64,000 nt of DNA from Xylographa opegraphella. Lineage: Eukaryota. This document shows positions 15,516-63,607 of this stretch, piece by piece; the stretch's first letter is position 1; every line of letters starts with the position of its first letter. The DNA lies in assembly GCA_022813865.1 (NCBI GenBank), contig JALDZX010000020.1, positions 62,001 through 126,000 of the forward strand, given 5' to 3'. The notes under the pieces are model-generated. The model saw nothing but the letters and a program-made list of their open reading frames with translations, was not told the DNA's origin and did no database searches. The position numbers were made by a program, and so were the translations under genes.

Positions 15516-15535
15516 NNNNNNNNNNNNNNNNNNNN
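15516..15535. other. Assembly gap (20 N) flanked by C-runs
   Basis: Run of N in the sequence. Confidence 1.
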
Positions 15536-38936: not shown

Positions 38937-40887
<1,951 letters not shown>

Positions 40888-42101: not shown

Positions 42102-44084
42102 TCAAAGGTCTTCTCCATCAGGTTCGCCTACGAAGCGGTCGAAAACTGTATCGAAGGATTCAACACCAAGGAAATCAGTATTCAATGCCGTATCAAAGCC
42201 CAGAGTAGGATTCTGCTGCGCTGAAGTCGTGGATGAATATATATCGGTGAGCTTCTCCCCGTTACTAAAATCCATCTCCTTTGCTTGGTTGTTATCTTGC
42301 CCATAATTCTGAATGTATTGTTGCCCATTTGTGGTAGGGCTTGTAGACATACTGTTGGTTCTAGTATCGCTGAGGCTCGAAAAATTGCTAGACCGCAGTA
42401 TTTGCGATGGCAAGGCGTTTGGTACAAGAGCGTTTGATGGCGATACATGTGATGGCAGTGCATTACCGAAATTTCCTCCAGAAGCGTACTCACTATGTCC
42501 TGGAAAGCCGCCACCACTGACCGGAGTTTGAGGTGCTGTCATAGAATTAACACTACGGCCACCTGCATATTGATTGCCATAGAGACCACCACCCATTTCG
42601 TTGCCATAGAAATCTCTCGGAAAGACTGGAAAACCTTGACCGATAGTGCGGGGCGGGTTCATGAGTTCTGGCATAGCCGAGCTATACGGAACACCAGGGA
42701 ATGCATCGATGTATGGACTGGTGTGATATTGTGAGTGATGTCCAAACCTGAAATTCATTCCAATGGCGTTAGAATTGTATTGGTTGTTCCAATTGTTGCG
42801 AGGCATCGATCCGCCGACACCGCTCATTCCAAGGTCCATGGATGCGCGACGGTTGATGTTTGGAGGCAGATGGCCAAAAGATTCGGCGACAGCTGAGGTT
42901 GTGTAGCCTAAAGGAGCTGTCAAAGTATATGAGTTACCGAGGGCTTTCAGATATTCCAGAGAACGCTCACTTTTCCCAACATGGAGAACAGTGATGTTAT
43001 TGATGTCATCTACTTTCTGTTCTACCGACATACTGGCGTCTCTGCTGATCTCACCTCCGTAGCCAGCTACTTCTTCATTGTTCTCCGCATTCTCGCCTTC
43101 ACCGGGGTCAGTTACCGACTCTTCCTTCAATGCAATAGATTCAACTCCCTCAAGTTTTAGGAAAGACGAACCGGCAGCCACATGAGGCTCGTTGGTCTCG
43201 TCGTCTGTATCATATTCGGACCCCCCGTTGTGTAGCCGGGCATAATTTACGTTAGTACGACGTCCAGTGCGCTCGGTAACTGTCGCACGAGTCGCTTCGG
43301 GGCTGGTTTCCTTCATCGGGTTTTTCTTGGTGGCTTCGAAGGTATCTGGTCGAGTTCTCCTTGCAATTTTGCTATTCTTGTTCGACTGTCCACTTTGTGG
43401 GTTCGTCATCGTACCATGGTTATCCTCCTCGAATTCGTTTTCAACATCACGCTTGACCCTTTTCTTTCGCACTTCCCCAAAGGCTGCCTCCGGGTCAGAA
43501 GCTTTATCAACATCGAATTCCTCTTCGTCATCATCATCCTCGTTAGAGGTGATGTTGGACGAAGCTGCCAGTCTCTTCCCTTGTCGCCCTTTCCTCGTTC
43601 CTCCCGAACTATTCACAGAACCAGTGGAGAGGGTCAAGTTTCCACCGCTACCCCGCTTCAAAGGGTCTGGTACTGGAAGGCCTTGTTCGACTCTTCTGGC
43701 TCGTAGCTTCGCAAGATGTTGGATAATTGCGCCAGCAGTAATCGTGCCTCCAAGCTGTGACCCTACTTCATCCCACGGGAGCTTGATTGACTTCTGGTTG
43801 CAAATCTTCTGCAATAGCAGGAGCATTTGGATATCCATATCCTCTAAGGTGTGTTAGCAAATACACAGAGGCTGCGATATTTTGAGGCCAGAAAGAAATT
43901 ATGAAACCAAGCAGAACCTTCAGCAGCTCCAGTGGTGGCCATCATTGCGATTTCGTTATTCTCTTGGAAAGGTTACGTGAAATGCAGGGTATGTTTATAA
44001 ATATGATCTTTTCGGAGAGAGCAACGTACCGGTCCATCTGACAAGGTTTCGCGTGGGAGGACGCTTGGATCGTGGTCCTGTCAT
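42102..44084 (-). CDS. Cluster gene A: Myb/SANT-like N-terminal domain + long disordered tail (~600 aa; intron 43844-44029)
   Basis: Spliced MTGPRSKRPPTRNLVRWT|EDMDIQMLLLLQKICNQKSIKLPWDEVGSQLGGTITAGAIIQHLAKLRARR; 578-aa open exon. Confidence 0.85.
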
Positions 44085-45132
44085 TTTGTGTGATCTTCAA
44101 GACTTGGGAATATGGGTAAATCCGTGGAGTGACTAAAGAAGAGTTCTGGGTACTCTGCTAGATCTGTGATTGAGATTGGGTTTTCTTGTCAGCACGACCA
44201 ACAACGACACCGATGCCCGGAAAATAATGTATTAAGAAGAGGATGAGCAGTGACGAAACACTTCTAGTATGAAGTGTGTTTTTTGTGTATTTCAATGGAA
44301 GTGAAGACGAAGACGCTGCCATAAATGCAGCAAAGCAGTGTATAGAAGCGCAAAGACGGCTACCTTACGGCTGAGTCCAATCTCGCCCACATAAGGCGTT
44401 GTGCGTGCACATCATGGATCTCGCCAATGATCTTGGACAAGGATGGACAGGTTGGACATACCGTATTGTACGAGGAAGAAATAAAATCAGCGTTGTTGAG
44501 AGCGACACGTACTTAACAGCTCAGCAAGAGACAAAAGCAATAAGCACGAAGTGAGTGGACCGTGCAAGAAGGATCAAGCAAGGTGGTTGTGGTATATCAT
44601 GATGATGTGATCAGGTGAAGGTGATCCTGAGCTGAGGGGTTCTTACGACGCTCGCTGTTCTTTACACTATACGTCTTCTTAGGCTAGGACCCCTTTTTTG
44701 TGAATTTCGACTTCGGCGTCCAGCAGCCGATTATACCCGACAAAGAGTGTGAATATGATTACTAAGTTCACCAGAAGGACTTCTCGCCTCTCACGGAACA
44801 GCATCTACAAGTTTCAAACAACAGGTCATATGGCACGAAGACCTGAGGCGTGGCCACGCTAAGCATTTATTGGTTTCAGCATTTTTCGGCTGGGTGATAT
44901 ATTGGCTAAGATACTTAGGTGTGGCCCAGTCTTCTGTGTATCTAATGCCTGCTTTGCTCAGTGCAAAGCATCCAACAAGATTTTGCCTATCCTAGTGCTT
45001 CTGTTCTGGTGGACTATTAAGGACTTGGAGTATAGGCTCAGACATAAACTTCAAGAGCCTATGACGAAGCACTTAGAAGATTGGCAAGACATTCAGTTTG
45101 CCTCTGGTTCTGAAGGTGTTGGGATTAGCATG

Positions 45133-45776
45133 CTAAGCCGACTGTATGTTCGAACGGTTTTTCTTACTGAGAGTCGCTTCTGAATCTCCGGGCTCATCCA
45201 CTCCTAACTCATTTTCGTCTTCGCCAGCTGGATGACTGCCATCAGACTCAATCGCCTCCTCTTCAGTTTTGTTGATAGCTGTAAAGGTAATCCTCGGAGA
45301 TGTTGCTGGTTTTTGGGAAGCTGTTTTTTGTTTCTTTGGTATTGCCGTCTTTGCTGAACCGCTCTTACGCTTGGAAGTTATATGAGCTGCTACGGCTGGC
45401 TCTGACTCTGTGTCCTTGGCTGCCTTTTTGAGCTTCTTCATACGCTCTTCTACAGCACGCGGGGTGCAGCCCATCTGTGCAGCTATGGCCACGTAATCAA
45501 TAGGTACAGGGTTTTGCGCAATGACAGCAAGCAGTAGCTCCTTTTCAGCCTCGGCTATTGGTCATGTCAGCAAGCGGATTGCCGTCAGGAAGCCATGCAG
45601 AACTCCGACGCTGTGAGGGTAACAGAGCTTGAAGTTACGAGCTATGACGATTTGCACTGACGGGAGGGGAGTGTGAGCTCAAGTGAAAGGGAAGTGCAGA
45701 CTCTTGTAAGGGGTAGGTCGAGTGATTCTGGCATTCTCCACTTACCGGTCCAAGTCATCTTCCGGATTTCCGACAT
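45133..45776 (-). CDS. Cluster gene B: small Myb/SANT-like protein (intron 45555-45745)
   Basis: MSEIRKMTWT|AEAEKELLLAVIAQNPVPIDYVAIAAQMGCTPRAVEERMKKLKK + Lys-rich then acidic tail; GTAAGT donor, CTGAC branch, TAG acceptor. Confidence 0.85.
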
Positions 45777-46815
45777 GATACTCAGCATGCTATTATCTAC
45801 ATCTAAACCTTGATCGGCTAGCATTGATTGTATAGACACTACTCTTGAAGAAGTTTTATCGATGTAAGGATCAAAGTTGAGGTAAAGTTGGATTGGTTCT
45901 AAGCTCGAGGAAAAGACTTGGATGGGTGTAGAAGAAGAAGATATCGGCTCTACTAAAGTAGTCGATTAACATTGTCCAATCACGTCAAATTTCAGGTGTC
46001 CCCGGGCATGAGCCTTCACAAATTGGCTCATCTAACACACCAGAAACGAGGGGCGTTTTGATTCATCACTCACGCAGAATGGCCGGAACGTTCTTATGCT
46101 TGGGACACGACGTTACGCGGAGTAACCGGAATGTTTTATACATGGAGTACAACATTATACAGGGTAGCCAGTACGTTCCTTTACGTGAAGCACGACACTC
46201 GGAATTGAAGGGCATGTCACGCAGGCCATAGGCCAGTATAGCGATGATCAGGTATTACGTTTATCTTCGGATCATCCCAAAAGTCGACATTGTATCTTGT
46301 ATCGCAAGGCTCTCAAAAACGATGGACTCCGTTAGGCGGAAAACGCCTTGATCACAAGATTGTCCGATTGGTGGGTACTGGTAACCTCGGGAATACTGCG
46401 GAGCACGGACCAGTATTTCCCTTTAATATCGTGGATAGTTGCGGCCGGCGTTAGACGAGTATCTTGATATCAACTACAACAATGGAAAGCGTAGATTTCA
46501 AAAGTGGGTTCTGCGCTTTGAGGATTTGCAGCTGTATGCTACCTCTACGATTCAACGACATTGATACCTAAGAGAACGACTATCGTGCAATCTGCGTCGT
46601 AGAGAGTCTGCTTTTCACTATGAATGGCTAATCAAGAGTTGTGGCTACTATCTCTCATAAATGACTCTCAAATTAACGCCAAGTTTAACCCATACGGAAC
46701 CATCTTGAGCTGAAATAGCCCTAAGCATCGATAAGGGGTGGATCTTTAGACCTGTGCGTGTCGGATTCAAGACGAATCACTGGGTCTCCAAGCTGTCCTT
46801 CAATAACAGCCAACC

Positions 46816-47561
46816 CTAATCCACGATGAGAATGCTCTGCTGAGCCATATCTCCGGCTCCTGCACGACTTTCTTCTCCCCCCTGGGGTGATTGTACCGTA
46901 CCAGAAGTCTCGAAGCTCTGCGGAATGTTGATTTCCTCGAAACCCCCAGCAACGATAAATTCGTTGAAAGCACTGCTATCATCGCCAGTGCTGGATCCCG
47001 CCGTCCCAGACCCATATCGCAGCCACGGATAGTCTGTATCGGCAGATGTATCCTCCGGTACTTGTACTTCATCCTTGACGATCGTTCTATCAGAAATCGT
47101 GCAAGCTACCTCGTCTTTCACTTTTCCCAGACCTTCATCGTCATCCACTGGCTGGTTGCTACCCTCATCAAACTGATCGTGTTTACGTTTCTTGGACCCC
47201 TGGACGTTCGGGTCATCTTTGCGACGCAAAGCCGGTACTGCTGAGTCGCGGGAGCAGATGGCTTGATGGATACCGTGGGCTTTCATCATGCGCTCATAAC
47301 GTTTTGCCCTGGGTTAGAGAAAGTACCGTCAGTAGATGGCTCGAGATAAGTGGCTCGATGGTGGCACAGGGATGGTGAGAGTGGCTTACGCTGCGCCCTT
47401 GGTAACGATCGCACACTCTTTAGCTACCTCGGTGAAGTCCACCTGAGGCTTGTCAGCCTGAATATCATCGTGACTTGGGGTGGACTGACCTTTCCGTTGT
47501 TTGAATAGCGGATACATGATATCAGAAACTTGAACTGCTCGTCGTTGTTGAGTCGGGGCAT
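46816..47561 (-). CDS. Cluster gene C: small Myb-like protein (introns 47443-47489, 47309-47389)
   Basis: MPRLNNDEQFKFLISCIRYSNNGK|VDFTEVAKECAIVTKGAA|AKRYERMMKAHGI + KKRK and acidic tail. Confidence 0.88.
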
Positions 47562-47710
47562 AATGGAGAGTGCGAGTTAAGCAGTGTATCTCAGTTATTT
47601 GTGATGAAATATAGTTTGCAGCGTTGAAGCCCGAATATCGTGCTGATGACTGGTCGAGGAATGAAAGTGACGAAGGTTGTCTGTCACTTCTACTGAGAGG
47701 GACGTGAAGG

Positions 47711-47790
47711 GACTGGGTAAGTTGGGACTGGGTAAGTTGGGACTGGGTAAGTTGGGACTGGGTAAGTTGGGACTGGGTAAGTTGGGACTG
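47711..47790. repeat. Perfect 15-bp tandem repeat (GACTGGGTAAGTTGG) x5.3
   Basis: Five identical units plus a partial unit, read directly. Confidence 0.97.
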
Positions 47791-48292
47791 AAGTCAACAC
47801 TTATAGGATATGGCATCCCGCTAAGGTCAAAGACTTACGAAAGGGTCATTTGAGGCACGAATGAGGATTGCCAATAGCCATGCAAACACTGAAGAGGATA
47901 AGGAGGATGGATGCTGGAAAGGGAAGCCTGCGTCGCTACATGAAAGCTCCTCTTTTCAATGCAGCTTGTTCAACGGCACCTTGCATTTATCACCGTAAGC
48001 ATAACTCGAGATCTGCTTCGCGACGTGCTTTGTTTTTCTCGATAGAACATGCTCGCAGATGGAAGCATGTGGACTAAAGATCAGTATGGATTGAAGAATC
48101 CAACTTCCACATCTGCTTCGGTAAACGTATGGCCTTTACCACCGATTCTCTACCACCGGCAACTTACTTGCTGCACGGGCAGCATATCCAGCTTAACCAA
48201 TTTGAACATTGAAACGCCACCATTCCAAGGCCCAAAGAAGATAAACAAAAATTTGCCAGCAAATATGATTACCAGGCAATGATGGACAAAAC

Positions 48293-48924
48293 CTAGGCCT
48301 CCTCCAACTCTAGCTCCTCCTTAATCGCTTGCTCATCGTCGCTATGCTCACTATTTGCGGCTTCCTTCTTTGGCTCAAGCTTTACCTTCTTGTTGGTTTC
48401 CTCAACATCATCTTCATCCTCCTGCACTTCGATCGCTGTCAAGCCTTTCTGAGGACGTCCACGCCCTGCTTTTCCTTTGGGCGTCCCCTCAGCGTTACGC
48501 TTACGCGAAGATGTCTTGGTTGCTGATTTGGTAGGAGAAATGCCGTTGGTCGTTGCACTTGTAGTTTTGTACTTGTTCATAGCCAAACCATACTTCGCGC
48601 GTGCCATTTTGCCGTCTTTATAGCCATACTCGAGGGCGATGGCATCCCAATTACACTGTTGTGTTTATTAGTTTTTGACTTTTTGGGTGTACGACTGTAT
48701 GGTATAGGGCAGGACAAGATACTTGTGTGATAACATATGACAGACAATGGTACTGTGAGTAGTGATCGGATCAAGAGGGCATACGATTTGGGAGAGAACT
48801 AGACCGAAGCGGTAGTGAAACTTACATCGGGATAGCCCTTCATATGTTTGAAAGCGATCTGTATGAGCCTGGTTTCCGCAGGTGAGTAAGCGGGGGTCGT
48901 GGCCGGCTTTTCTGGTGACGACAT
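48293..48924 (-). CDS. Cluster gene D: small Myb-like protein with AT-hook-like motif (intron 48656-48825)
   Basis: MSSPEKPATTPAYSPAETRLIQIAFKHMKGYPD|CNWDAIALEYGYKDGKMARAKYGLAMNKYK; tail TPKGKAGRGRPQK, acidic end. Confidence 0.85.
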
Positions 48925-49870
48925 CTTTGATGGTGAATGGTAAGTGAACGATGGGTTATTTGGAAAGACTGGGCTGGATGTTGTAAGTAAAAAATGGAGG
49001 CTTCCGAATATGAGTTCTTGGCTATATATGTACTACTTACAAGCAGTTTGACGTTTGGTTGATACTAGTATGGTGTTGTGGGAGGTTGAGGATGAGTATT
49101 AACGGAAGATTGGTATCTGGTTGAAATTTAGGATGGTCACTGAGGGAGCGCTATCTGAGGTTCAGGATGAGAACAAACGCTTTAATAAAGTGGATATTGA
49201 GCCGAGGACAGAAGCAAGAAGGGAGGTGATGCTTGGTTCGAAACGTGTGCACTAGTTCAAGTTCCGTGTCGGGTATTTCGAGGGGAGAAATCCAAAATGA
49301 CAAGACAGACTTGTCTTCATTAAGCTGTGATAGGATGAGCTGAGAGCGAGTCAAGTCTTAATCGATGAGGTTTTCTTACACGAAGCTCAAGTATCGTCGT
49401 GGTGGGAAGGTGGAAGTGCAGTTAAGAGGTAGGAGAAGACATTATGCCAACTCGGCTATGGTGACTCGCTAATTTGCTACTAATAAACGTGGTCCGCAAT
49501 TGCAGATACGCTTACGGTGATGAGGGCTAAGGAAGAGACCACTCAGACCCCATCTCCGCTTGCAGGTTACCACAGGTATACCTTGCACTCCCGAGTAAAG
49601 TAGACAGAAATCGAGGAATCAAAATTGAAGGCAAATCCCGGTTCGGTTGCTCACAATACTATGCTCTCCAAACTTCAGATGAGTCCCAGAATACCAGATT
49701 GTTGCCGTGAAAGCTATCCAATGCTCAAGCAGACAAGACTTTCAAGATTTATAGTCCTGTGCTGCTGCTGCAGTAGCTTCGTTGTCCATCCCTTCCTTCC
49801 GTTGGTATAAGGGGTCACTTTCTCTGTGGCGAGTGTTGGCAAAGCTAAGCATCATCGTGCCTGGTACCAC

Positions 49871-50441
49871 TCACGAGTTTAAGAGCGTGTCGTTCTCCTC
49901 AAGCTCATAGTCTGCAGCATTTTCAACTTCATGATTATCGTCGGCTTTAACCTTTGCACATTTCTTCGCGTTTTCATCCGCGTCAACGTTGCTAGCCACT
50001 TTGGCAACGTTGCTATCTTTCCGCGCCCGCTTAGTTCGAGAGCCGGGGGTAGCAGTCGTCATTCGCTTGTTGCTCTTGGTTGTTGAAGCGTTCGGAGTAG
50101 AAGATTCGGATTCAGCTTTGCCAGAGCTGAGTCCATGCTTCTTCACAATCTGCGAGTACCGTGTGGAGGCTACTTTGGCATTCTTGAGATTGGTAGCTTC
50201 AGCCACCTTGGCCCAGTTGATCTGAACGACATTAGTCTTCTAAAATAGGGCCAGAATGAATAGACATATCTCTCGGATAGAGATGACAAAGTTTGGAGAA
50301 GTGCAAAAGGCCTTGGGAATCGGATGGGACGTTTGCAACTCAGGACGAGCTCACCTTAGGCTTACCTTCAGAGAATTTGAAGACCTGAAAGATGAACATT
50401 GCATCTTTGCTCAACGCGTCATTTGTGGGAACAGATGTCAT
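49871..50441 (-). CDS. Cluster gene E: small Myb-like protein (intron 50222-50354)
   Basis: MTSVPTNDALSKDAMFIFQVFKFSEGKPK|INWAKVAEATNLKNAKVASTRYSQIVKKHGL + basic then acidic tail. Confidence 0.85.
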
Positions 50442-51184
50442 ACTACCAGGAAGGTTATCAAGAGCTGATCCATCAAGTCTAGAAGTCTACTCACTTGGCG
50501 AGGAAACTGAGTGGTGTTCTTGTAAGATAGCTTTAGTAGCGAGTACGAAGCTCAGCTTACTGATCGAAGGTGGACAATTGCTTGTTCTTGTAGTAAGTAG
50601 ATTCGTCCAACAGCGATGATAGCTACGTTGTGAAGTTGATGAGATTGAAATAAGCTGCAAAGTTGAAGGTTGCCTTGAGATCAATCGATTGACAAGCTCA
50701 TTTCGTTTAGATTAAGCGGTCTAGCTAGGGCAACGATTATAATGGACTGGTTTGTCATTCACGCCATGAAACGGGTATTGGTCATCTGCGACTTGGAGGG
50801 GCAACGAAAATGATCTTCGAAGAATCTGATCTCTGACACGGATTCCATGTGAGGCTTCCATCAATCTGCAAGGGTGCCGTTGTGTCCGGGTCGCGCTAAG
50901 GTAGATCAAACAACTAAAGCATGCTTGTCCAGGTGTATCCTGGCCTCGACTGATGATAAATATATGTGCCATATACTCTACAGCGAGATATGCTGGAGAA
51001 CGGTGGGTGAGTCGTGGTTCGAACTAATGAGGGATATTGAGTTCGACATTGGACTAAAATCAGGAGTCCTTTTCCCAATATACATGTCTGTCATGAAGCA
51101 CGCTTGAACTCATCCTTACCAACGAGCAACACAAGCCAGCCAGCATAAACCCCCTCCATTCCCTGAAACCGCCGAGCATCCCTT

Positions 51185-51927
51185 TTAGAAGGCATCCGTA
51201 GATTCCAACTTCACATGAGAATGTGGTTCCAACTTGAGTGCTGATCGCTCGTCAGAAATCTCAGGCAGCTTAGGTAGGGCTTCGGAAGAAGTTGATGGGT
51301 CCATGATAGGCTGTTCTGCTAAGGAAGATGAACTGTTCGCAAGGACAACCGAAGAGAGCCCAGATACAGAAGGTTCCGTGTCTTCTGCGGTGTATAGCCA
51401 ATCGTCCATTGGCTCTTCTTTAACGGGATGTTCGGGCTTGATGTGAGGTTCAGGTTTGATAAGTGCCTCTGGTTCTTGAAGAAGATCTAGCTTGACAAAG
51501 GGCAATTTCTTGCCATTTGATCTATGTGTAGAGTCGTCATGGCTATTTGCGGGGGCTTGCCGATCCATAGAGCCGGATTCCAAGTTGGAATCCTCTGCCT
51601 TAGCACGCTTTCCTGCAGCCTTGGCAGTCTTCTCAATCTTCGCTTTCTTGTGCTGTCGGGGTTCAGTCCTAGGCTTGCGAGGGGTAGGTGGTATTCCTTC
51701 CATGTGCTGCTTGAAGCGCGAGAAGCGCATGCGTGCTGCATGACCATTAGTGATATCCAGCTCAGAAGCCACGGTATTCCAGTCGATCTGAGGTCTGTTA
51801 GTATTATAGTTTAGAGGTTTCTTGGGATGAATACAGATTTGTGATCGAGCTGCTTCAAGATAGTATAGAGGAACCGGGAAGTAGCGCTATCACTCGGCAA
51901 TACTGTGCTCCTACGAAGGCTTGCCAT
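51185..51927 (-). CDS. Cluster gene F: Myb-like protein (intron 51788-51834)
   Basis: MASLRRSTVLPSDSATSRFLYTILKQLDHKS|IDWNTVASELDITNGHAARMRFSRFKQHMEG; tail with IKPE/VKEE/LKLE repeats. Confidence 0.9.
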
Positions 51928-53010
51928 CTTGAGTGGAAGCACAAGACCACAGAGATGTGGCTTTTTAGCGATGTAGTGAATGATATTATCTCTCTCGATT
52001 GGTATACAAGAAGGGTTCCACACAGCATGCTATGCTTTGCAATACTAGAGATGTTCTAGGAATTCTTTGGATCAGTGACAAGGGGTGAGCGAACGCTTGA
52101 AATATCCCACATTGGAACCCACCGAACTGCCAGTGTCTACCATTATAAGATAAGAGGCCTTTGATGCAGCCATACTTTCCTTTGATTGCTCTCTGACGCA
52201 GAGCTTACAGCCAATGGCTTGCTCGACTAGCCGTGTATCAACCGCGACACTGAATGGAAAACGTTCACCAAGTGTCGCAGAACAAGAGAGAGCCTTGTGA
52301 AAGCGGGAGGTCCGTGCGTCCCACCACCGATGCCGGGCCGGCTAAATATTGTGCCTAAATCAACAACGAGTTTGCTTCCTGCAGCATGTTGCATGTCTGC
52401 CACTCCTTTGTTGAGAGACAACCTGTCACATTGCAGGTCTAGCGAGGTAGGCCTGCTGCATCTTCGCTGCAGCGCGTCAGAGTTTGAAAGAGACACCCTA
52501 AATGCAACAACTCGTTGATTTCATTAGCTATAACTTGTCACAGTGGATATCTATGATGCCTGGTAGTTTTTATAGCTGGAAATGCAAGGTACTTCTGGGC
52601 GGCAAATCAGGAGTGCTGTCTCGATGCTTGCATCTGTAGCTCTCGCCAGCGTAGATGGTTTCAATGGATCGTATTGCTTGTGGAAGTTCTTTTCCGGAGT
52701 ATTCTAGGCTCTTCAGATGCTGGATGCGAATCGAGGATGTTTGTTCTGATATTTTGTACTTCCAGCTGCAATGTGGTTTGGAGCATTTGGACTCTCGAGT
52801 TTTTTAAGCGAACATTCTTCTGCCAAGACTAGATCATAGTTGTCCGCACAACGGAAGTGAACCGAAGTCTGACCATCCAAAACACTTTCAAATCCCACAT
52901 TAGATTTCCATACTTTGAGCATATCTGGTTACACAAGTCTCATCGACAGCAAACCAAAATATCCACATCATCGCTTTACTCGATCAAAGCCAGACGCGTC
53001 CGAGTTCAAA

Positions 53011-53494
53011 ATGCCTGTCAGATGGGATTCGGATTCAGAACTTAAGCTTACAATGGCCATCATCAAGGCCACCAATGTCAAACCGAAAGCCTCGGATAAC
53101 GTGGCATCTATGCTGGGAGACACTTACACAGGGGAGGGTGTCCGGTCAGCTATTCTTCATTGCTTTTGTGGATTATCTCATCTCACTGCCGTGTAGCCAG
53201 CACTATCAAAAGATGCTCAAACGCGTGACCTTCGCCGCCAACGCATCCTCGAGCTCACAATCTGCATCTGCCATCTCACCAACGGCTTTGACCACTTCTG
53301 CCGATGACTCTGTAAAGGCACTGAAAAACCAACCCTCCTCGCGCGGTGTGAAGCCAAAGGTATCACCCATGAAGCGCAAGAAGAACGAGGAGGAAGAAGC
53401 AGAGGAGACCGAAGGGGAACAAGAAGAGGACGCAGAAGTAGCCATCAAGGCCAAAAGGATCAAGAAAGATCACCGTGGAGACGATGACGAATAG
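53011..53494 (+). CDS. Cluster gene G: small Myb/SANT-like protein (intron 53145-53196)
   Basis: MPVRWDSDSELKLTMAIIKATNVKPKASDNVASMLGDTYTGEGVR|QHYQKMLKR; tail SPMKRKK + Glu run. Confidence 0.83.
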
Positions 53495-54582
53495 TTAGTA
53501 TCGTCTCTGCTCTACTTTCTTAGTATTCTAATCGTATATAGCATCGAGGAATGAGGTCTTCGGCATTCGACTGGAGGTACGGGCGGTACTACTGGCGTCC
53601 CTTGGGGCTCGGTCGAAGTTCTCGTGTTGTCTTTATAGCATAGTAGCCACTGAATGAATACTCTACTGCTAATTCCTCCCACATCATCTGTATATGATAT
53701 ACTTATTGACAATCGCGTAATTTTGAGCACGGACTTAGGTCACGGCTCCACGTGACTCCGGAAATACGACGGTCCGTATATCCTAGGATAGGACTGGGCC
53801 TCAGTCACTAGATGACGAGGTCGTGCTGTACATAGTAATGATAGCAACAAACTCTTATGGAACACAATGTATATATCGATGGTTGGCACTTTCTAATATC
53901 TCAGTGTACTACTTTGGTTATACATCTAGGAACGACATTGTGACAAATGAACGTGTATAGTCGCCAGGACAAAATATAGAGCTTACCCTTCATGCCGTAT
54001 GCCACACTGCAAAGCTTTATTTTCTGCTTCGTTCCCTCTCTGTAAACGCTTCTTTTTGTTTTCTATATATGATAAGACGGGCATACCACCAGCTCCTAGA
54101 CCTTTGTTGATGCAAGTCATTCCGGAGTGTCCAACCAGAATCGCAAGAAATTGGCCGTCTCGTTTTGTCGATGGCTTCATAGCGCTCATGTCTCACTGGT
54201 ACCTTCGATCGACATCCTTTAAATGTGGCTGCTTGAAAGTCTTTCGTCTTTTACCCTCCTAGCATACCCACACTGCCTACGATGCACAACTCAAACACAG
54301 CACCCATACTCTCGGACTTCTAGCATACCAGTCATCGGCTTTACGGTTCTCTTGCACGTTCGACTACAGCACCAATGCATTTAACTTTCCAACACGCCAG
54401 CGTCTGCAGCTTTAAGGTGATCGTGGACGTTCTGCTAAGCCCCCAATACGGTCACGCTCCTAGCACGCCGGAATCTGCATGTATACGTCTCTCGTGAACC
54501 CTCGACACCACTAGTTTCAGACTTCTATCACACCAGCAACCTCATCTCGACAAATCTCAGACTTCCTTTTCGACCATCCAAC

Positions 54583-55165
54583 ATGCCTATGACTTGGACC
54601 GACAAAGCTCGTGCAGAGGTGCGTGTTCTCTCCTCTCCTTTCCCTTCTTTGTCACCGTCACCTTCAGTTTACCTCACTATCCTCACGATCACTTTCAGTA
54701 TTCTCGTTTTAACCCCCGTCCAGCTCTTGGCGCACATTCTACGCATTCACCCTATAAAGCTCGACTACGAGTCTCTCGCGGAAGCAATGGGTCCTGGTTC
54801 GTACTTTACATCCTTTCGGTCACCTCAATCTAACCAATGCACATCAAGAATGCACCAAGAAAGCCGTTCAGAGCCAGATTCAAAGAATCAAGAACGCTGG
54901 AAATACCACAACCACTGTGGACGACGAGCACGAGGCCAATGCAGAAGCGCAGGGGCTTGTGGCACCCAAGCAGCGCACTCGCAGCACTCCCATTGTTTCT
55001 GCTATGAAAGGGGCCAGGCGGGATGCCAAGAGAAAGTCAAAGGCTGCTGATGATGAAGCCGAGGAGACGGACGAGGAGGAGGGGATGCCCATGGGCAAGA
55101 AGAGGAAGGTCAGGTTCGAGGATGAGGATGAGGAGCTGGTGGTTGAGACAGCGGAGGCAGCCTAG
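54583..55165 (+). CDS. Cluster gene H: small Myb/SANT-like protein (introns 54619-54723, 54797-54848)
   Basis: MPMTWTDKARAE|LLAHILRIHPIKLDYESLAEAMGP|ECTKKAVQSQIQRIKNAG; tail KKRKV + acidic. Confidence 0.87.
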
Positions 55166-55516
55166 CAGGCGCTCTCGGCCCGTTGAATGTCTATGGTTCT
55201 GAAACGGAAGGATGAGTTATTTTTTGTAGCAGGGGGTAGGTGGATTGTTCTCGCTCTTGAGAAAGTTAGCACAATTGACAAGTTCTATGGCATTTGTGCA
55301 CTTGTATACTGCTTTAGGGAGCTTATTGGGAGCTTGCTTGTGCTTTACTTCTTCGGTCACAAACACATCAAAGATACTGCTGGACTGTAGACATAAGTGT
55401 CCCTGTGATTCGCCTACGGTAAGGTCTAGCAATAGCCAAAGTTTCGGCACAAAGAAAGGACTACTCATTGGTAGAGTCCTTCAACTCAGTAATCACTCGC
55501 TGTGCTCATGGTTAAG

Positions 55517-56239
55517 CTAGTCTTCCACCTCAGAGAGGTTCTCATCCTTAACAGACCCCTCATTCTCAATTTCCACATGCATCGCCCTCGTCTTCTTGAT
55601 TGGCGACTCGTCATCTCTCATAAGCCAATTGGGGTTCTCAACCTCCACCGTCTCCAGCTTTACTGTTGGCGCATTCCGCTTTTGTTTCCCACTTCCAGTA
55701 GCACACTTCTCAAGTCCGACCGTGTCTCCGTTCTCCTTCGTGCGAGGCTTTTTGGGGGCAGTCGGCGCAGTAGAGGCCTTGGGCTTCGGAGCACAGGGCG
55801 ACTTACACGGAGTGCTGTTGTTCGAGGAAGCAACATCACCAGCCGCCTTGGCCAGACTACGAATCTTTAATATGCGCTCAGTGATTGCCCGTGGGGTGGG
55901 GACTTCGCCATTGTTGGTAGGCCATGCGGCAACAATGGCTTTGGTGTCGATGGAAATTGCGTGAGTTTCCAGGACTTTGAGAAGTAGCTGCAAGTCGTTA
56001 GTTGAGAATGGAAAAGACCGGTATTGTTGGACAAGTAGAAAGCATCAAGACTCATTGAAAGCTTTGAGCGAATTTGACAGGTAAAAACCATGAGTTAGAC
56101 AAATCGCTGGGATGTACATAAAGGTATGGAATAAGACCACAATTAAAGGGAAGACAATACATGACAGAGACGGAGTAATGAACTCGAGGTGGAAGATGCT
56201 CACCAGCTGGTCATTTTCTGAGGTCCACTTGATAGGCAT
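55517..56239 (-). CDS. Cluster gene I: small Myb/SANT-like protein (intron 55988-56203)
   Basis: MPIKWTSENDQL|LLLKVLETHAISIDTKAIVAAWPTNNGEVPTPRAITERILKIRS; tail with TP/SP-K and VKLE/VKDE. Confidence 0.87.
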
Positions 56240-58162
56240 CTCGGAAATTGGGAGTGTTTAAGGTGTTTACTTGACTTGAGATCATGGGATTAGCAACTCG
56301 AGACACAAACTGACACACTTGTTGAATGATTTTTACAATTTAGGACACCTCGATGAATGCTTTGACCGACTCCAATATGCTTAGTTTTTGGCTCGAGTAT
56401 GGTTGTGTGCTCAAGTGGGGGCCCGGGAAGAAAGAATGAGAGGAGTATAGGAGTGATGGGCTTAGCGAGATACAAGGTTGAACACTTTAGGACAGAGAAT
56501 TAACATCCGAGTGCTGAAGCCGAAATTGCTGAAGTCGAAATTGCTTGAGGTCTCTTGCAGCATCATAACGTCAATTTGACAACCACACTATGACAACGGC
56601 AGACAGAGAGACTTCCTCGATACATAACATGGGTCCTCGAATAATGTTTCCCAACGATATTGAGGGGATATATTTCCTCACAAATAACATCACATGGCGG
56701 CTTCATGGTTGCAGCACAGCCTGCGACAATCGTACGCGCATACAACTGGGTTACGCTCCCCTGCAAGCCTTGTGGTAACAATCGGGATCGTCCGACCCTA
56801 CTTTGGGCATGAGATGATTAGGATCCAACCACCTTGGCTCTGCCAAAGATGATTATGTAGCTCACATGCCCCAAGCACAGCCGTGTCGTCCAGGGGTAAC
56901 CTGCATGGCGCGCGATGACGCCACCTCCGCGCTTACCTTACAGAGTTGCGTAAAAGAACCTCCTACTTGGCTCTTCTTTTACACAGACCGTTGTCCTTGA
57001 GGCATATCCTCCAAGTAAGACCGTCCAAATAGAGACCATGCACATGTATTGAGTAGCTCGGAAATAATCACAGGCCAGCTCTCTTCAACGAGCGCTGAGG
57101 AGATAACGGTGTCCTCATTCAAGCATCGGATTGCTTATGATCTCCTCTGTGCCGTTATCAATACGTGTCCATTATCATGGCTTCCAGATCTGATATCGTT
57201 TGTTTTTCCTTTCAATACACTCCCTGTTCCTTGATCCCGGACTAGATGGATGCGAGCTACATCGGAGGGTGTGACAGTCCTCGTCACATGGACATGTCAC
57301 TTTGATCGTTCAGACTTGTGTCCTCGACGTTGGCGGTCCATCGGCTGTTGAGTTGGTGACGAGCTCGCTTGTGCCTGGGCGGCTTCTTTGTGTCAGAAAT
57401 GGTTTAACAATTGTTGAGGTTTGCTCTATCCTTGGCAGTGAAACATGCCTTCCTGCCTTTGTTGCCTGCAGCGATTTGTGCATCAAGTCTCTCGTACTCG
57501 AAGAAACTTGTCGTCGAGTTCCTTTGACTTTGACATCATCAGGTAACTCAAGTTATCGATGGCAATCCTAATTGCAACATTTGTCGTTATTCATGCTGCA
57601 AACGTGCGCTGTCTTCATGATTTGCAACGTTTTCATGACGCCTGTCATTACTACTGACAAACCGGTCAGCCACCCAGCCACACAGTTTAGATAAGCTACC
57701 AGTTAACACTTAATCTCCAAACTCTTCTTTACCGCCCACAACGTCGATGCTGCTCTCCTTCGAGTCTAATGCTGAATCTGGATCTTGCACATCAACCTCA
57801 AATCTATCATAGCTGGATTCCTATCTCAAGCAAGACAGAGACACTGCCAAGGTATGTTTCTTTTGGTAAAGGTATAGTGCTCTACAGAGTCCAGATTAAT
57901 CTCGACAGCAATCGCTCGAAAATTCCACAAATATCGTAAGTCATAGCCGTCTTCATTTCTGTCACCATCTTCTCAACTAAAAATTATTCTGTGTTTCCGC
58001 ACAAGCCTGGCCTTCATTCAGATTGCGCTCTTTGAATGTGTCCCAAACATATCCCTACCATGCCTGTTTCGGATGAGCGTTACTGGTGACTCAGCGTCTC
58101 TGAACACTTTTCTGCCTATGTCGTTGAAACTAAGCTAATTCTATAGCTCATCCAGTACCAAA

Positions 58163-58897
58163 ATGCCTGGAGTCAAATCTATTGTGTGGTCCGATGCAAA
58201 CGACTCGAAGTTGCTTAGGGCACTTCTAGTATGTGGCAATGTCCAGATTACTCCCCAGGTGGCAGAACAGATCGCGGCCTACATGGGTATGTTGACCACA
58301 CCACCTGGTGAATTCATGCCGTAATTGGTAATGCATTCTCAAAGGATGATTCACATAGCTAACGGTGCGGTATTTGATATGCTAGGGCCTGGAGTACCGG
58401 GGCGAGCCATCTTGTCACGCGTAATGCTGACCAAGAAGAAATATAAAGACGAAATTGCTGCTGGTATCCCCGTAACTACAGCGAGGCCAGTTTCGAAGAA
58501 ACGCCCTGCGTCTGACACATCCCACAGTGTCGAAAAGAAAATCACGAAGACTATCAAGAACGAACCTCAGTCTGATCTAGAGGATGGAGCAGCATTTCCT
58601 TATAATCCAGCTACACCCCCGAAGACACTATCGAAGACTTGTTCGATTCGCAACTCAGCCGATGGAGCCGCAATTCTAGTCCAGGCGTCTTCTACACGCT
58701 CATCTCCTCGGGCCATAAGATCCGTGGACTATAACGTACTGCATGATTCGTTTGGGGCAATGAATGGAGCTACTGATGAAGACGGGCAGAACGTCTTCGG
58801 CGACGATGCAGGAAACTCAAGTGAAGACTCTGCTGATAGCGACGAACTTTTTGCTGGTACGAAAGAGGGATTTGGGGATGAGGATGAGGAGTATTAA
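58163..58897 (+). CDS. Cluster gene J: small Myb/SANT-like protein (intron 58287-58385)
   Basis: MPGVKSIVWSDANDSKLLRALLVCGNVQITPQVAEQIAAYM|GPGVPGRAILSRVMLTKKK; basic middle, acidic C-terminus. Confidence 0.83.
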
Positions 58898-60082
58898 CTC
58901 TGCAATGGTTCATGTAGCATTCTGCGATGGTTATCTGGTCGTGATTCGGTTGTTGTCAATGTTGATCACTTGGATGGTAGCTTGGTCAGGCTATACGGCG
59001 TATGTAGCACACTGTAAACCGAAAACAGATCTTTTGTTACGCTTCTAATAACGCCTCCAAGCCCCCATATCAGTGTAGTCTCGCGACTGGTTCAGCATAA
59101 CTCATAATCCTTCCAAATCCGTGTCAAGACAGTTTACGGCCCTCTCGAATCTGTATAAAGTGCGTGCAGCTCCTACAAGCTGGGGCCCGCGGGCTTACGC
59201 GTGTACATCCTCATCTAATTCTAATAATCATTCCCATCATACCAGCTATACCATATGCACAGACTCCTTTCTGACTTACGTAGCCATCTCCCGGACTTTA
59301 GTTCCACACGTCAGGCGTCGAACAGGTACCTTACCTATGTTGCAAAATGCAGAAACATGCACCCCTGTCTGCGCTAGCTCTAACACCTGGCAACCTCAGG
59401 GCTGCCTGATATTCTCATGCAAGTACTTTACGCGTGGCGCGCTGCACACATCGACTTGCAGATGTGATAGAGTACAGGACGAGAATGTCGGCATGTCGTG
59501 GCGAGGATAGGAGAGGGTGTGAGTCATTTGGAGGGGTCTGTGCTGGGGGAGGGGGATCAAGGTCGGAGGTGAAGATCATTGTGGAGCGTGTAGTACGTAG
59601 GTGGGAAGGGAAGTGGGAAAGGATGGTATATGGATGGGTGAGGACGCTGGTTTCTTGGTGGTCGGTATAGGAGCCAAGCTCGTCTTTGGGTACTACGACG
59701 CTGTAACTTGTGTTTTTCTTGGAAGAAAGTGTGCATCAGTGGTCCATTAGGTAAGTAGGTTCCGAGAGAAGAGGGCAGAGAGATGACCATCTTCGATTGA
59801 AATGAGGGATCATGTGTTATATGTGTTGTTTTTCAAACATCCTTCCTCGATTCTACACTGGTACTACTGTCCGCTGTCGAGGATAGAAGTTTTCTTCTTC
59901 TCTATCGTTCTCTCTTTTTCTGTGCTTAGCTAGGAACACTTCGTGACTTACCCAGCTGCACAAAGGCAGAGGACTTACCTCTCTCCAAACTAACCGCTTG
60001 CCTCAACCTCATCACAACTTCACTCACAGCTCACCACAAAACAATACCCACTTCCTACTCGACTCCTCACACCTTGCTCAGC

Positions 60083-60810
60083 ATGCCGAACTGGCAGTCC
60101 ACTGAAGCTTACAAGCGCCTCTTAGCTGCCGTCTTGGCCGCTCATCCAGACAAGAAACTTGTACGTTCTACATATCTCCACTTTGCCGCTCTTCTGTCCC
60201 TCCATGGCCCTTGTACCTACTATCTCCTTTCTCTCAACCGTTCCTCCGATTATTAGCTCAGTCAATGATCTCTATGTTGTCATGTGCGTACTGCTCTCCA
60301 TACCTCTGCTCCCGCCCCAGCTCCCGCTCCAGCTCCCGCTCACGCTGCAGACAGCTTGACTACCGTCGCATCGCTACTTACTTCGGTGATGGGGCCACGT
60401 ACGACAGTATGGAAACACAATTCCGCAAAATTCGTGGCGAAGCTGCCCGTATGAGAGAAGCAGTTGAGTCTGGCGCCCGCGCGGAGGCGCCGGCTCGTGG
60501 CAGTAAGAGAAATGTATGTGGCACTCCGAAGAATAGTCGCAAGCCGCGTAATGCTTCTAAGAAGAATGACACGGTATCGGACGGCCGTATTACTAAGAGT
60601 AAGAGCGTGACGCCGACGAAGAAGGGCGGCACGTATGGGAACGGGGTTGCGAATCCAAATGCAGTGATGGGCGTTAAGGAGGAGCTGTGTAGCAGTGCTT
60701 CGAGCATGATGGGCCTGGGTGATATGGAGGACGGAGAGCATGATGAGGAGGTGCTCGAAGAGAGTGACTTTGATCAGGATAGTAATCTTTATACCGACAA
60801 GACCGTATAG
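60083..60810 (+). CDS. Cluster gene K: small Myb/SANT-like protein (intron 60161-60354)
   Basis: MPNWQSTEAYKRLLAAVLAAHPDKKL|LDYRRIATYFGDGATYDSMETQFRKIRGEA; tail TPKNSRK, TPTKK, VKEE, acidic end. Confidence 0.87.
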
Positions 60811-61318
60811 AGAAGTGGGGACGGGCTGGTCTTGGGAGGAGCTGCGGAGGTTTGAGACAGATCAAGGGATAACCGAGAACCGAAGGTGGCGGGGAGCGTG
60901 AAAAATTCGGTGGATGGTCGGGTGAATGGCAAGTGGAAGTAAGTAGATAGCAACCACAAAGATAAGAGGTTTTCGTTAGGAGGCTTTCGTTGGTGGTAAT
61001 TTTCGAAACTGATGGAGAAATTGATCACTGCAACATGTAAGACCGACAGTTTGTGCACCAACCTGACGCAGCTACAACGCCATGAAAGCGTTCGCCTAGG
61101 TATCTAGAAACGTAACAACATGCGCGGCTTATTTGCTCTTGTGCATATCATGTTAGATTGGGATCTTCAAGACCTGATAACGCAAAGCATTCCAATCTTC
61201 CTGAACACGCAATGCAGGATTCGTTGGAACACATATACATGAAGCTACAGCACTGATATTACATGTAAAATCTCATTGATATCGTGGACATTATGGGAAG
61301 TGCTCAATACATGCCCAA

Positions 61319-61426
61319 GGAAAGACACATGTTAAGGATAGATACATGTTTGGTGAAAGATACATGTTTGAGGAAAGATACATGTTTGAGGAAAGATACA
61401 TTGCTTGAGGATAGATACATGTTAAG
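61319..61426. repeat. Degenerate ~18-bp tandem repeat (GGAAAGATACATGTTTGA) x6
   Basis: Six recurring gawagatacatgtt cores. Confidence 0.85.
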
Positions 61427-61676: not shown

Positions 61677-62960
61677 CTACACGTCGTTCCTGTTTATTTC
61701 ATAAAGCTCTTCCAGTGACTCGGTGTCTGAGCCTGAAGCGTCAGGCGAAGCAGAAGAATTCAAATTAGGCTCTTTTGCGCTTTCCGTATCATCCTGAGAC
61801 GACTCTTCAGACGACTCTTCGTAGTTGAGCGGAGCTTCCAGGGAAGACCCTTGAACTGGACTACTCAATGACCGCAAGTTTGGTAATGGAGGAGCGGAGT
61901 CTTGATCCATGGGCCGACAGGCGGCCCAAGAATGCAGCGGTATCTTCCCTTTCAGTATCACAGGAACGATTCCGGCAAGCGAATCGGCCAATACGGCACT
62001 GTCGATGCGTTTGAGGCGGTCTTGCTCCAGTACTCGGTCGTACCAATGCTGAAGTCCGTTCGAATAGTATCGCTTTATGGGCATAACGTCTCTTTCAGTA
62101 GCCAGACCGTGCCTCCGGTTCAAAGCACGCCTTTCTGGCTCACTTCCGTGGCAAAGATAATGGATCACGGCTCCCAGACTCCACACGTCCGCTTCAAAGC
62201 TGATCCAAGGCTGCTCCGGTGGCCTCCAAGAATCGGTTCCAGGTGAATATATGAAAGGAAGACCGAGTATATGCTCCTCGACGATGAGGGAGAGGCCGAA
62301 ATCTCCCAGCTTAATATCCGGATAGTCTGTGTCAGGATTGGAACCAGGACGCCACTGGAGGAAAATATTCTCCGGTTTTATATCCGCGTGAATTACGGAA
62401 CGCCACATATATTTAGGGACAGCGGTCTGGCTGCGCCCATGATGTATGTAAGCTAAAGCCTCAGCGCCTTGGAAAAGGACGTGCCAAAGGAAGGATTCTG
62501 GGAAAAGCCTATTAATGTTACGGTAACGCGTTGCAAGTCTTTCCAGATCGCCATCGTTGCAGAACTTCATGAGGAATAAGTTGTCGGGAGCTGGGAAATA
62601 CTCGAGTATCGCGCAAAGCCTTTCGTTCCTGGGCAATACGTCTAGTAAAATACGGACTTCTGTCGGGACTTCTTGGTTATTTTCTCTCTGCGCAACTGCC
62701 TTGCAAACAAATAGTTCTGTTGTGTATTGGTATTTGTACACAAGTTTTACTGCAGCTGACGTTGGACCGTGGCGAAAGGATTTTTTGATGACCCATTTGT
62801 CGTTCCCTAGCAGGAAATCCTCTCCAGGGCCAAGGCTCTCAAGTCTGTCACTCAAATAATTTGTATTGAGAGGAAATGAGTCTCGTGGCATCAGGTCTGC
62901 CAATTCATTTCGCATCCAAGAATCTTCGTTCCCAGTATCAAAGTCAAATATTTTGGACAT
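61677..62960 (-). CDS. Divergent Ser/Thr protein kinase (NIMA/NEK-like fold, non-RD), intronless
   Basis: FVCKAV (subdomain II), EVRIL, MKFCNDGDL, FPESFLWHV, IHADIKPENIFL, IKLGDFGLS, GT.SWRPPE, ADVWSLGAVI; Gly-rich loop degenerate. Confidence 0.88.
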   Translation of the reverse strand: MSKIFDFDTGNEDSWMRNELADLMPRDSFPLNTNYLSDRLESLGPGEDFLLGNDKWVIKKSFRHGPTSAAVKLVYKYQYTTELFVCKAVAQRENNQEVPTEVRILLDVLPRNERLCAILEYFPAPDNLFLMKFCNDGDLERLATRYRNINRLFPESFLWHVLFQGAEALAYIHHGRSQTAVPKYMWRSVIHADIKPENIFLQWRPGSNPDTDYPDIKLGDFGLSLIVEEHILGLPFIYSPGTDSWRPPEQPWISFEADVWSLGAVIHYLCHGSEPERRALNRRHGLATERDVMPIKRYYSNGLQHWYDRVLEQDRLKRIDSAVLADSLAGIVPVILKGKIPLHSWAACRPMDQDSAPPLPNLRSLSSPVQGSSLEAPLNYEESSEESSQDDTESAKEPNLNSSASPDASGSDTESLEELYEINRNDV

Positions 62961-63607
62961 CAAGAAATGGAAAATGGGCTACAATGTTTGCAAAGGAGAC
63001 CACTTCGGTATTAAATTTATGCGAGTGCCCGTGTACCGAAGTTACAAGATAAATTGTTTAAGAGAAAGAGATAAATATAGCCTGAGAGACAAAGCATTAT
63101 TGTACGGTAACAAGGGGCAGTAGATCAATATGCTTATGTTTTGATTCTTAATGGCATAATTGAACCATTGAAATACAATAAGTAGATACTAACAAGAACA
63201 TCTGAAAGGTGCTACTGAGGAGCTGATCTAAAAGAAATTATGATTTCAAATCCAAGGGCACAATAAAAGTGAGGATATTGCTAGGCTTCCCAGCAATGGA
63301 CGATAGGAGAGTTAGTTCCTTTGCCATGAAGACAGTAAACACAAACATACAGCCATTACTTATCACAGCGTTATGCCTTCTCCAATTGGGTTATGTGCTT
63401 ATACCGTTGGAATGGCAGATTCTCTAGAGAGCTCGCACTCCCAGTCTTCAACTGAATCGAACAGCTGAAGAAGTGTAAGAATTGGTGATGAACATTTTGG
63501 CACTATAAAAGTTGCGCAAGGGGAACGGGCAAATTCTATTGTGCCAAAGTGCGTGTCGATTAAACTCCCGCCTTTCCGCCATGGCTATGCAGGAAAAATT
63601 CGAAACC

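Follow-up and report, generated by a model that had tools for sequence, protein, structure and literature searches.

An ancient array of eleven diverged Myb-like genes in the lichen-forming fungus Xylographa opegraphella

We analyzed a 64,000-nucleotide stretch of the genome of Xylographa opegraphella, a lichen-forming fungus (Lecanoromycetes, Baeomycetales), which spans positions 62,001 to 126,000 of contig JALDZX010000020.1 in NCBI GenBank assembly GCA_022813865.1 (hereafter, the window, whose first base is position 1 in all coordinates below). Positions 42102–60810 of the window hold eleven intron-bearing genes, designated A to K, and no other recognizable gene; each encodes an N-terminal domain of ~55 residues followed by a disordered tail. 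The interval was examined in all frames and at base level, and the eleven models assembled from their coordinates fit it exactly, from the stop codon of A at 42102 to that of K at 60810, with every frame open and every intron bounded by GT..AG and 47–216 bases long. An earlier reading of this DNA, made from the letters and translations alone (hereafter, the sequence-only reading), had proposed an uninterrupted array of eleven genes in these positions, with A to F on the minus strand, G and H on the plus strand, I on the minus strand, and J and K on the plus strand, and both the gene count and the orientations held up. So did its claim that no unrelated gene lies among them. A profile trained on the eleven domains matched only A–K in the whole window at an expectation value (E) of at most 1; none of nine open reading frames, eight in the gaps of the array and one between A and the neighboring HSP60 gene, matched Pfam at E ≤ 0.01; and between the NCBI locus tags 003587 (A) and 003592 (F) there is room for exactly four more, the number of genes from B to E.

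No RNA data were found for these genes, and the splice sites therefore rest on homology (Table 1). Database proteins align over the predicted exon junctions of all eleven genes, with D represented by a single, weak match of this kind. Junctions are spanned by 70 of 72 database matches of G, by 130 of 177 matches of H (over both of its junctions), and by all 24 matches of J. For C, the database protein P0332 aligns over both junctions, and relatives of C in the metagenome loci described below are interrupted at the same two places; the closest database relatives of I are P0333 and P0319. Our model of F is identical to NCBI protein P0001 (MMC26_003592, 231 amino acids), and that of B equals P0141 (MMC26_003588) in length (150 amino acids) and is 100% identical to it across exon 2. 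Gene A corresponds to MMC26_003587 (P0121, 588 amino acids), but the NCBI model uses a different first exon, without the conserved basic stretch with an Arg-Trp motif that P0124, P0130, P0132, and P0138 carry. The exon at 44084–44030 fits these orthologues better than the P0121 exon does, and it is supported by orthologues from X. pallens, Lambiella, and Trapelia. Behind its N-terminal domain, A continues for ~530 residues that are mostly disordered in composition and contain conserved islands. In 14 orthologues these islands, encoded within 42102–43650, show little or no variation; they match no Pfam family, and the nearest Atlas clusters carry the automatic label “Myb-like domain-containing protein” without having a Pfam family in common.

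Table 1 Window coordinates of the eleven array genes, the intergenic region between F and G, and the two genes flanking the array
Feature	Span	Strand	Exons	Product	Remark
Gene A	42102..44084	-	44084-44030, 43843-42102	598 aa	long member
Gene B	45133..45776	-	45776-45746, 45554-45133	150 aa	
Gene C	46816..47561	-	47561-47490, 47442-47390, 47308-46816	205 aa	
Gene D	48293..48924	-	48924-48826, 48655-48293	153 aa	weakest-supported member
Gene E	49871..50441	-	50441-50355, 50221-49871	145 aa	
Gene F	51185..51927	-	51927-51835, 51787-51185	231 aa	most conserved member
F/G intergenic region	51928..53010	.			1.08 kb, common to head-to-head F (minus) and G (plus)
Gene G	53011..53494	+	53011-53144, 53197-53494	143 aa	
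Gene H	54583..55165	+	54583-54618, 54724-54796, 54849-55165	141 aa	
Gene I	55517..56239	-	56239-56204, 55987-55517	168 aa	
Gene J	58163..58897	+	58163-58286, 58386-58897	211 aa	
Gene K	60083..60810	+	60083-60160, 60355-60810	177 aa	
HSP60 main exon	38937..40520	-			Pfam Cpn60_TCP1, 190 bits; flank, outside array
Protein kinase gene	61677..62978	-			Pfam Pkinase, 75.3 bits; flank, outside array

The sequence-only reading had assigned all eleven proteins to a single plan, with a tryptophan in helix 1, an aromatic residue in helix 2, and a tail that is first basic and then acidic. This plan is followed in part. In the alignment of the domains, the helix-1 tryptophan is found in only seven members (A, B, G, H, I, J, and K) and is absent from C–F; the helix-2 aromatic is found in eight but is absent from G, I, and J; and a helix-3 aromatic is found in six. 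In all eleven proteins the tail has a net negative second half; its first half is net positive in nine, the exceptions being A and C, the tails of which are acidic throughout. The domain itself carries a net charge of +2 to +7 in every member, and Arg and Lys are abundant in its third helix. Intron positions are not uniform across the array: one is common to A and B, one to H and I, and one to C, D, E, F, and K, with the K intron at the same place and in the same phase as in the other four, while other positions are used by the introns of G and J and by the second intron in each of H and C.

Sequence comparisons divided the eleven genes into two subgroups. The first, consisting of C, D, E, and F, belongs to or borders the Pfam family PF22980 (Myb_DNA-bind_8), the gathering cut-off of which is 27 bits. 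The sequence-only reading had named a comparison with Pfam as a check of its Myb/SANT assignment, and the outcome was divided. F (66.7 bits, as P0001) and E (32.5 bits with exon 2 alone) pass the cut-off, and B (24.6 bits at full length) and C (25.5 and 11.8 bits for its separate exon pieces) fall just below it, and D has no Pfam match. The precomputed database annotation lists PF22980.3 for B. No match to PF22980 at E ≤ 1 was obtained for A, D, G, H, I, J, or K with exon pieces covering most of the domain, and four full-length orthologues of A gave no Pfam match; throughout, both Pfam membership and fold are judged for C, D, E, G, H, I, J, and K from exon pieces and local profiles. D is linked to E by phmmer (8e-9) and BLASTP (1e-14). 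The most conserved member, F, has 142 database relatives at E ≤ 0.001, and 28 columns of its alignment are invariant over 35 sequences. Like the array domains, PF22980 is a three-helix domain, of ~50 residues and with an Ascomycota range, but the seven remaining genes (A, B, G, H, I, J, and K) are below its cut-off or undetected, and the Pfam entry describes the domain and neither a gene array nor a function.

These seven genes form a sister subgroup, by sequence, that Pfam mostly misses. An external domain profile of the B family, built from 207 database sequences with B itself included (E-values at Z = 100000), matched B at 4e-24, H at 1.9e-18, I at 1.3e-13, J at 9.4e-5, K at 1.4e-4, A at 2.6e-4, and G at 4e-4, and its best decoy scored 5.4 bits. 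Comparison of the A-domain and B-domain profiles with hhalign gave 97% probability (E 4.5e-11), and phmmer links G to A at 8e-7. The B profile also matched 931 cluster representatives (50% identity) at E ≤ 0.001, 340 of them at E ≤ 1e-10, and among the named B-like members are Dothideomycetes, Geoglossomycetes, and one Taphrinomycotina yeast. A weak link joins the two subgroups through B. Among 36 B-family proteins, 19 match PF22980 at E ≤ 0.01 (best 6.4e-8), next to the sub-threshold score of B itself; hhalign aligned the B domain with the F domain in register over 44 columns, at 41% probability (P 2.7e-4); and one intron position, that of K, is common to both subgroups. A common origin of the subgroups is likely on these comparisons, though not proven, and the view that the eleven genes are paralogous, diverged members of a single small three-helix, Myb-like family is supported.

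The fold was predicted with AlphaFold2 for two members, B and F, one from each subgroup. Both models have three helices at matching positions, at residues 11–24, 31–38, and 42–61 in B and 13–27, 34–40, and 46–60 in F, forming a confident domain that is followed by a low-confidence tail; block-mean predicted local distance difference test (pLDDT) values are 83–96 over residues 11–50 of B and 77–91 over the domain of F. The three-helix fold proposed by the sequence-only reading was thus predicted in both of the domains that were folded. The best match of the F model in the PDB is a Myb repeat of Cdc5 (6jui_A), with a structural Z score of 6.4 and a root-mean-square deviation of 1.6 Å over 47 residues; further matches include CDC5L (Z 6.3), plant RAD (Z 5.9), an R2R3 Myb (Z 5.5), and the SANT domain of MTA1 (Z 4.9). 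Profile searches of PDB sequences returned nothing for F and, for B, only a match of the tail to RPC7 (E 0.41). “Myb-like” is a fair label for the proteins of the array, whereas membership in Myb/SANT proper is not established for most copies: the assignment is firm for E and F only, and that of the seven-member subgroup depends on weak bridges.

In classical Myb/SANT repeats, each of the three helices contributes one tryptophan or other aromatic residue, at regular spacing. The array proteins resemble the solved examples (Cdc5/CDC5L, 6jui and 5mqf; RAD, 2cjj; R2R3, 6kks; MTA1, 4bkx) in having a three-helix bundle with a helix-turn-helix (HTH), but they differ from them in having a single repeat and not tandem repeats, in the absence of three spaced tryptophans, in having no sequence-level match to any solved chain, and in Z scores that are tied with those of unrelated HTH domains. 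For the B model, the closest structures are region 4 of extracytoplasmic function (ECF) sigma factors and generic HTH domains, with Z scores of 3.6–4.0 over 47–62 residues; these domains are bacterial and lie within multi-domain proteins, unlike those of the array, and no kinship is implied, because the Z scores are too low.

The array is old. There is no DNA-level similarity or repeat between the eleven genes, and the paralogues are only about 20–33% identical as proteins. Relatives of F led to 80 metagenome loci of 49 types, of which 22 are at least 8 kb long; the following counts describe loci ascertained through F, and some of the types may be close relatives of one another. At least one further member of the array was found by tblastn or a window profile in 13 of the 22 long types, and at least three further members in nine; in five more long types a further member was detected only with the external profile, at E < 0.05. 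Ten multi-member loci contain 48 regions matching the array, and for 42 of these one window paralogue was clearly the best match, by at least 10 bits. Nine of the ten agree with the window in orientation and in the order K-J-I-H-G-F-E-D-C-B-A; the exception is L034. The most widely kept core in the fetched loci consists of F, C downstream of it, and a member of the second subgroup head-to-head upstream of it, and this divergent second-subgroup partner is present in most of the long types. The sequence-only reading had argued for an old cluster over a recent amplification and had proposed to test whether each member has its own orthologue in other clusters; the lack of DNA similarity, the low protein identity, and the collinear, member-specific counterparts elsewhere support an old cluster, individual members of which recur in conserved order in other genomes.

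Gene order in named genomes points in the same direction. On the assumption that tag numbers follow the order of genes on a contig, F and a B-like gene are 2–7 locus tags apart, on equal-sized contigs, in six of the seven named genomes that list both: X. opegraphella, Pycnora praestabilis (Candelariomycetes), Caeruleum heppii, Thelocarpon impressellum (Thelocarpales), Dirinaria, and Stereocaulon. The exception is Pleopsidium, with a copy on a 1.4-kb contig. By the same measure, F and A are 4–5 tags apart in all four genomes compared. In three other Xylographa species the counterparts of B and A are fused into single proteins of 713–732 amino acids (P0122, P0123, and P0126), and P0332 fuses C-like and B-like parts. 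The fused public models are probably read-through annotation errors, and they independently show that the genes concerned are adjacent. An A-like protein is present in an Aspergillus, and the F copy of one metagenome locus (L018), which carries several members, is closest to Paecilomyces (64%); a copy nearest to Eurotiomycete proteins in a locus with several members hints at a wider range of the array.

We propose, with a probability of roughly 0.6, that the interval is an ancient tandem array of eleven paralogous small-protein genes that has been kept together by selection. Each protein would consist of a positively charged, N-terminal three-helix Myb-like HTH domain, a disordered stretch that in most members is basic, and an acidic end. 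The proteins would enter the nucleus, where the Arg/Lys-rich third helix would lie on DNA or nucleosomal DNA and the acidic tail would modulate that binding or contact basic partners. Nuclear binding to DNA or chromatin is suggested by the positive charge of the domain, the composition of the third helix, and the tails. The linkage of the genes would persist because neighbors share regulatory DNA, a constraint that we infer from the conserved order and from the head-to-head G|F pair, which, being widely kept, is the clearest candidate for such sharing.

Several observations weigh against this proposal. As regards a single family, the bridge between the two subgroups is weak. The external B profile gave C 8.5 bits (E 12) and F 7.6 bits (E 23), neither of them significant; hhalign assigned A and F a probability of 5.5% and 7.4%, with A taken at full length or trimmed; and window-only profiles of either subgroup failed to find the other. 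D is tied into the family through E only and was not recovered when left out of the profile: leave-one-out profiles built from the window alone placed it at E 410, and A, I, and J only at E 0.2–0.5. As regards the fold, the Myb matches of F lie within one Z unit of MntR, Lrp-type, and other HTH domains (MntR and Lrp-type, Z 5.6–6.0), and no member of the alignment has the three tryptophans of a classical Myb repeat. The best structural match of B, sigma-factor region 4 (Z 4.0), is a generic HTH and not specifically Myb, and Foldseek found no match to the B model in the PDB below E 0.57, Myb entries appearing only as weak matches at E of about 2. As regards linkage, the sampling of loci through F and the reliance on ordered locus tags, both stated above, count on the same side, as do the two results that follow.

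Among the 600 bases upstream of each of the eleven start codons, the sharing of k-mers does not exceed chance: six promoters have the top 7-mer and five the top 8-mer, against maxima of 7 and 5 in shuffled sequences. F was also found alone in four of the 22 long locus types (L002, L010, L025, and L033). In the first three of these, a single open frame holds the whole F domain, uninterrupted by an intron, and no further family member came to light within 10 kb; they may mark lineages in which F stands alone. These results would fit a passive relic, that is, a set of old tandem duplicates that slow regional rearrangement has left linked, with members acting as independent sequence-specific transcription factors and an order that has no function. 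Variation in gene content is in line with that explanation as well, since the K-J-I block is inverted in L034 and K points the other way in L041. Filamentous ascomycetes usually lose gene order rapidly, however, and a passively retained neighborhood is hard to reconcile with order and orientation kept in nine of ten multi-member loci, with F and B-like genes only a few locus tags apart in other classes, or with a divergent partner upstream of F in most long types. We regard a passive relic as the strongest of the alternatives and yet as unlikely.

A bolder form of our proposal would have the array function as an integrated locus, in which co-regulated small proteins that bind chromatin or DNA act together, for example as heteromers, with G|F as the ancestral core and the gene order kept by selection on shared regulation. 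We consider this form speculative and rather doubtful.

The proteins might alternatively be SANT-like protein-binding modules that serve as small adaptors or histone-tail binders within chromatin complexes, perhaps by pairing with one another, and do not bind DNA directly. The absence of the classical tryptophan triad, the presence of the MTA1 SANT domain among the structural matches of F, the acidic end of every tail, and the head-to-head arrangement of F and G, which is reminiscent of divergently transcribed histone gene pairs, would all suit such a role. SANT domains are typically acidic, however, whereas all eleven domains of the array are positively charged and have an Arg/Lys-rich third helix, and the structures closest to F are Myb repeats that bind DNA or RNA, which makes this explanation improbable. 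Weaker still is the suggestion that annotation artefacts or decaying pseudogenes account for some members of the array or for all eleven. The thin support for D and the doubtful first exon of the public A model could be read in that way, but with clean splicing and open frames in all eleven genes, relatives conserved across classes and matched by hundreds of cluster representatives, and the many invariant columns of the F alignment, we find it very hard to credit. A recent, lineage-specific tandem amplification in Xylographa, for which only the physical clustering speaks, is refuted by the lack of DNA similarity, the 20–33% protein identity, and the member-specific counterparts in other genera and classes, and its chance is negligible.

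The surroundings of the array agree in part with the sequence-only reading, which had placed it between HSP60 and a kinase/UFD1. The HSP60 and kinase genes were recognized by Pfam (Table 1), but UFD1 is unconfirmed, because the partial open reading frame at the end of the window gave no Pfam match. Two tandem repeats were found: a perfect 15-base repeat of 5.5 copies at 47709–47790, ~150–230 bases upstream of the start codon of C, and an 18-base repeat of 5.9 copies (84% matching) at 61318–61423, between K and the kinase gene. At 15516–15535, 20 consecutive N probably mark a scaffold gap.

Searches of the openly available literature found no paper with the Pfam name or accession of PF22980, and keyword searches on Myb-like arrays and on the protein name returned nothing relevant; the passages of PMC8396895 that were consulted do not deal with this family, and the papers that name X. 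opegraphella do so in neither title nor abstract. The statement of the sequence-only reading that no functional description of such a cluster is known therefore remains valid for the literature searched. A conserved array of such paralogues is unusual and so far unstudied. The gene order of filamentous ascomycetes is generally held to erode fast, and the conserved clusters known from them are mostly metabolic or mating-type loci; seen against this background, an order shared by Lecanoromycetes, Candelariomycetes, and Thelocarpales would amount to constrained microsynteny of an unusual kind. An analogy may be drawn with animal Hox clusters and with divergent histone gene pairs, in which, as here, old paralogues stand in a fixed order and orientation and, as in the G|F core, may be arranged head-to-head, although the protein family is unrelated and the members of the array are very small and have long disordered tails.

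Our findings describe an array of up to eleven regulator-like paralogues with kept order and orientation, and they define a large family that Pfam has mostly not captured. They also correct public gene models, in which A starts with a doubtful exon and B is in some cases fused to A or to C. The array offers a concrete locus for asking why the order of paralogues persists, with relatives in tractable fungi such as the Aspergillus that encodes an A-like protein. If the bolder form of our proposal is true, it would be an integrated locus that has been kept for hundreds of millions of years across fungal classes, a fungal counterpart of conserved regulator and histone clusters.

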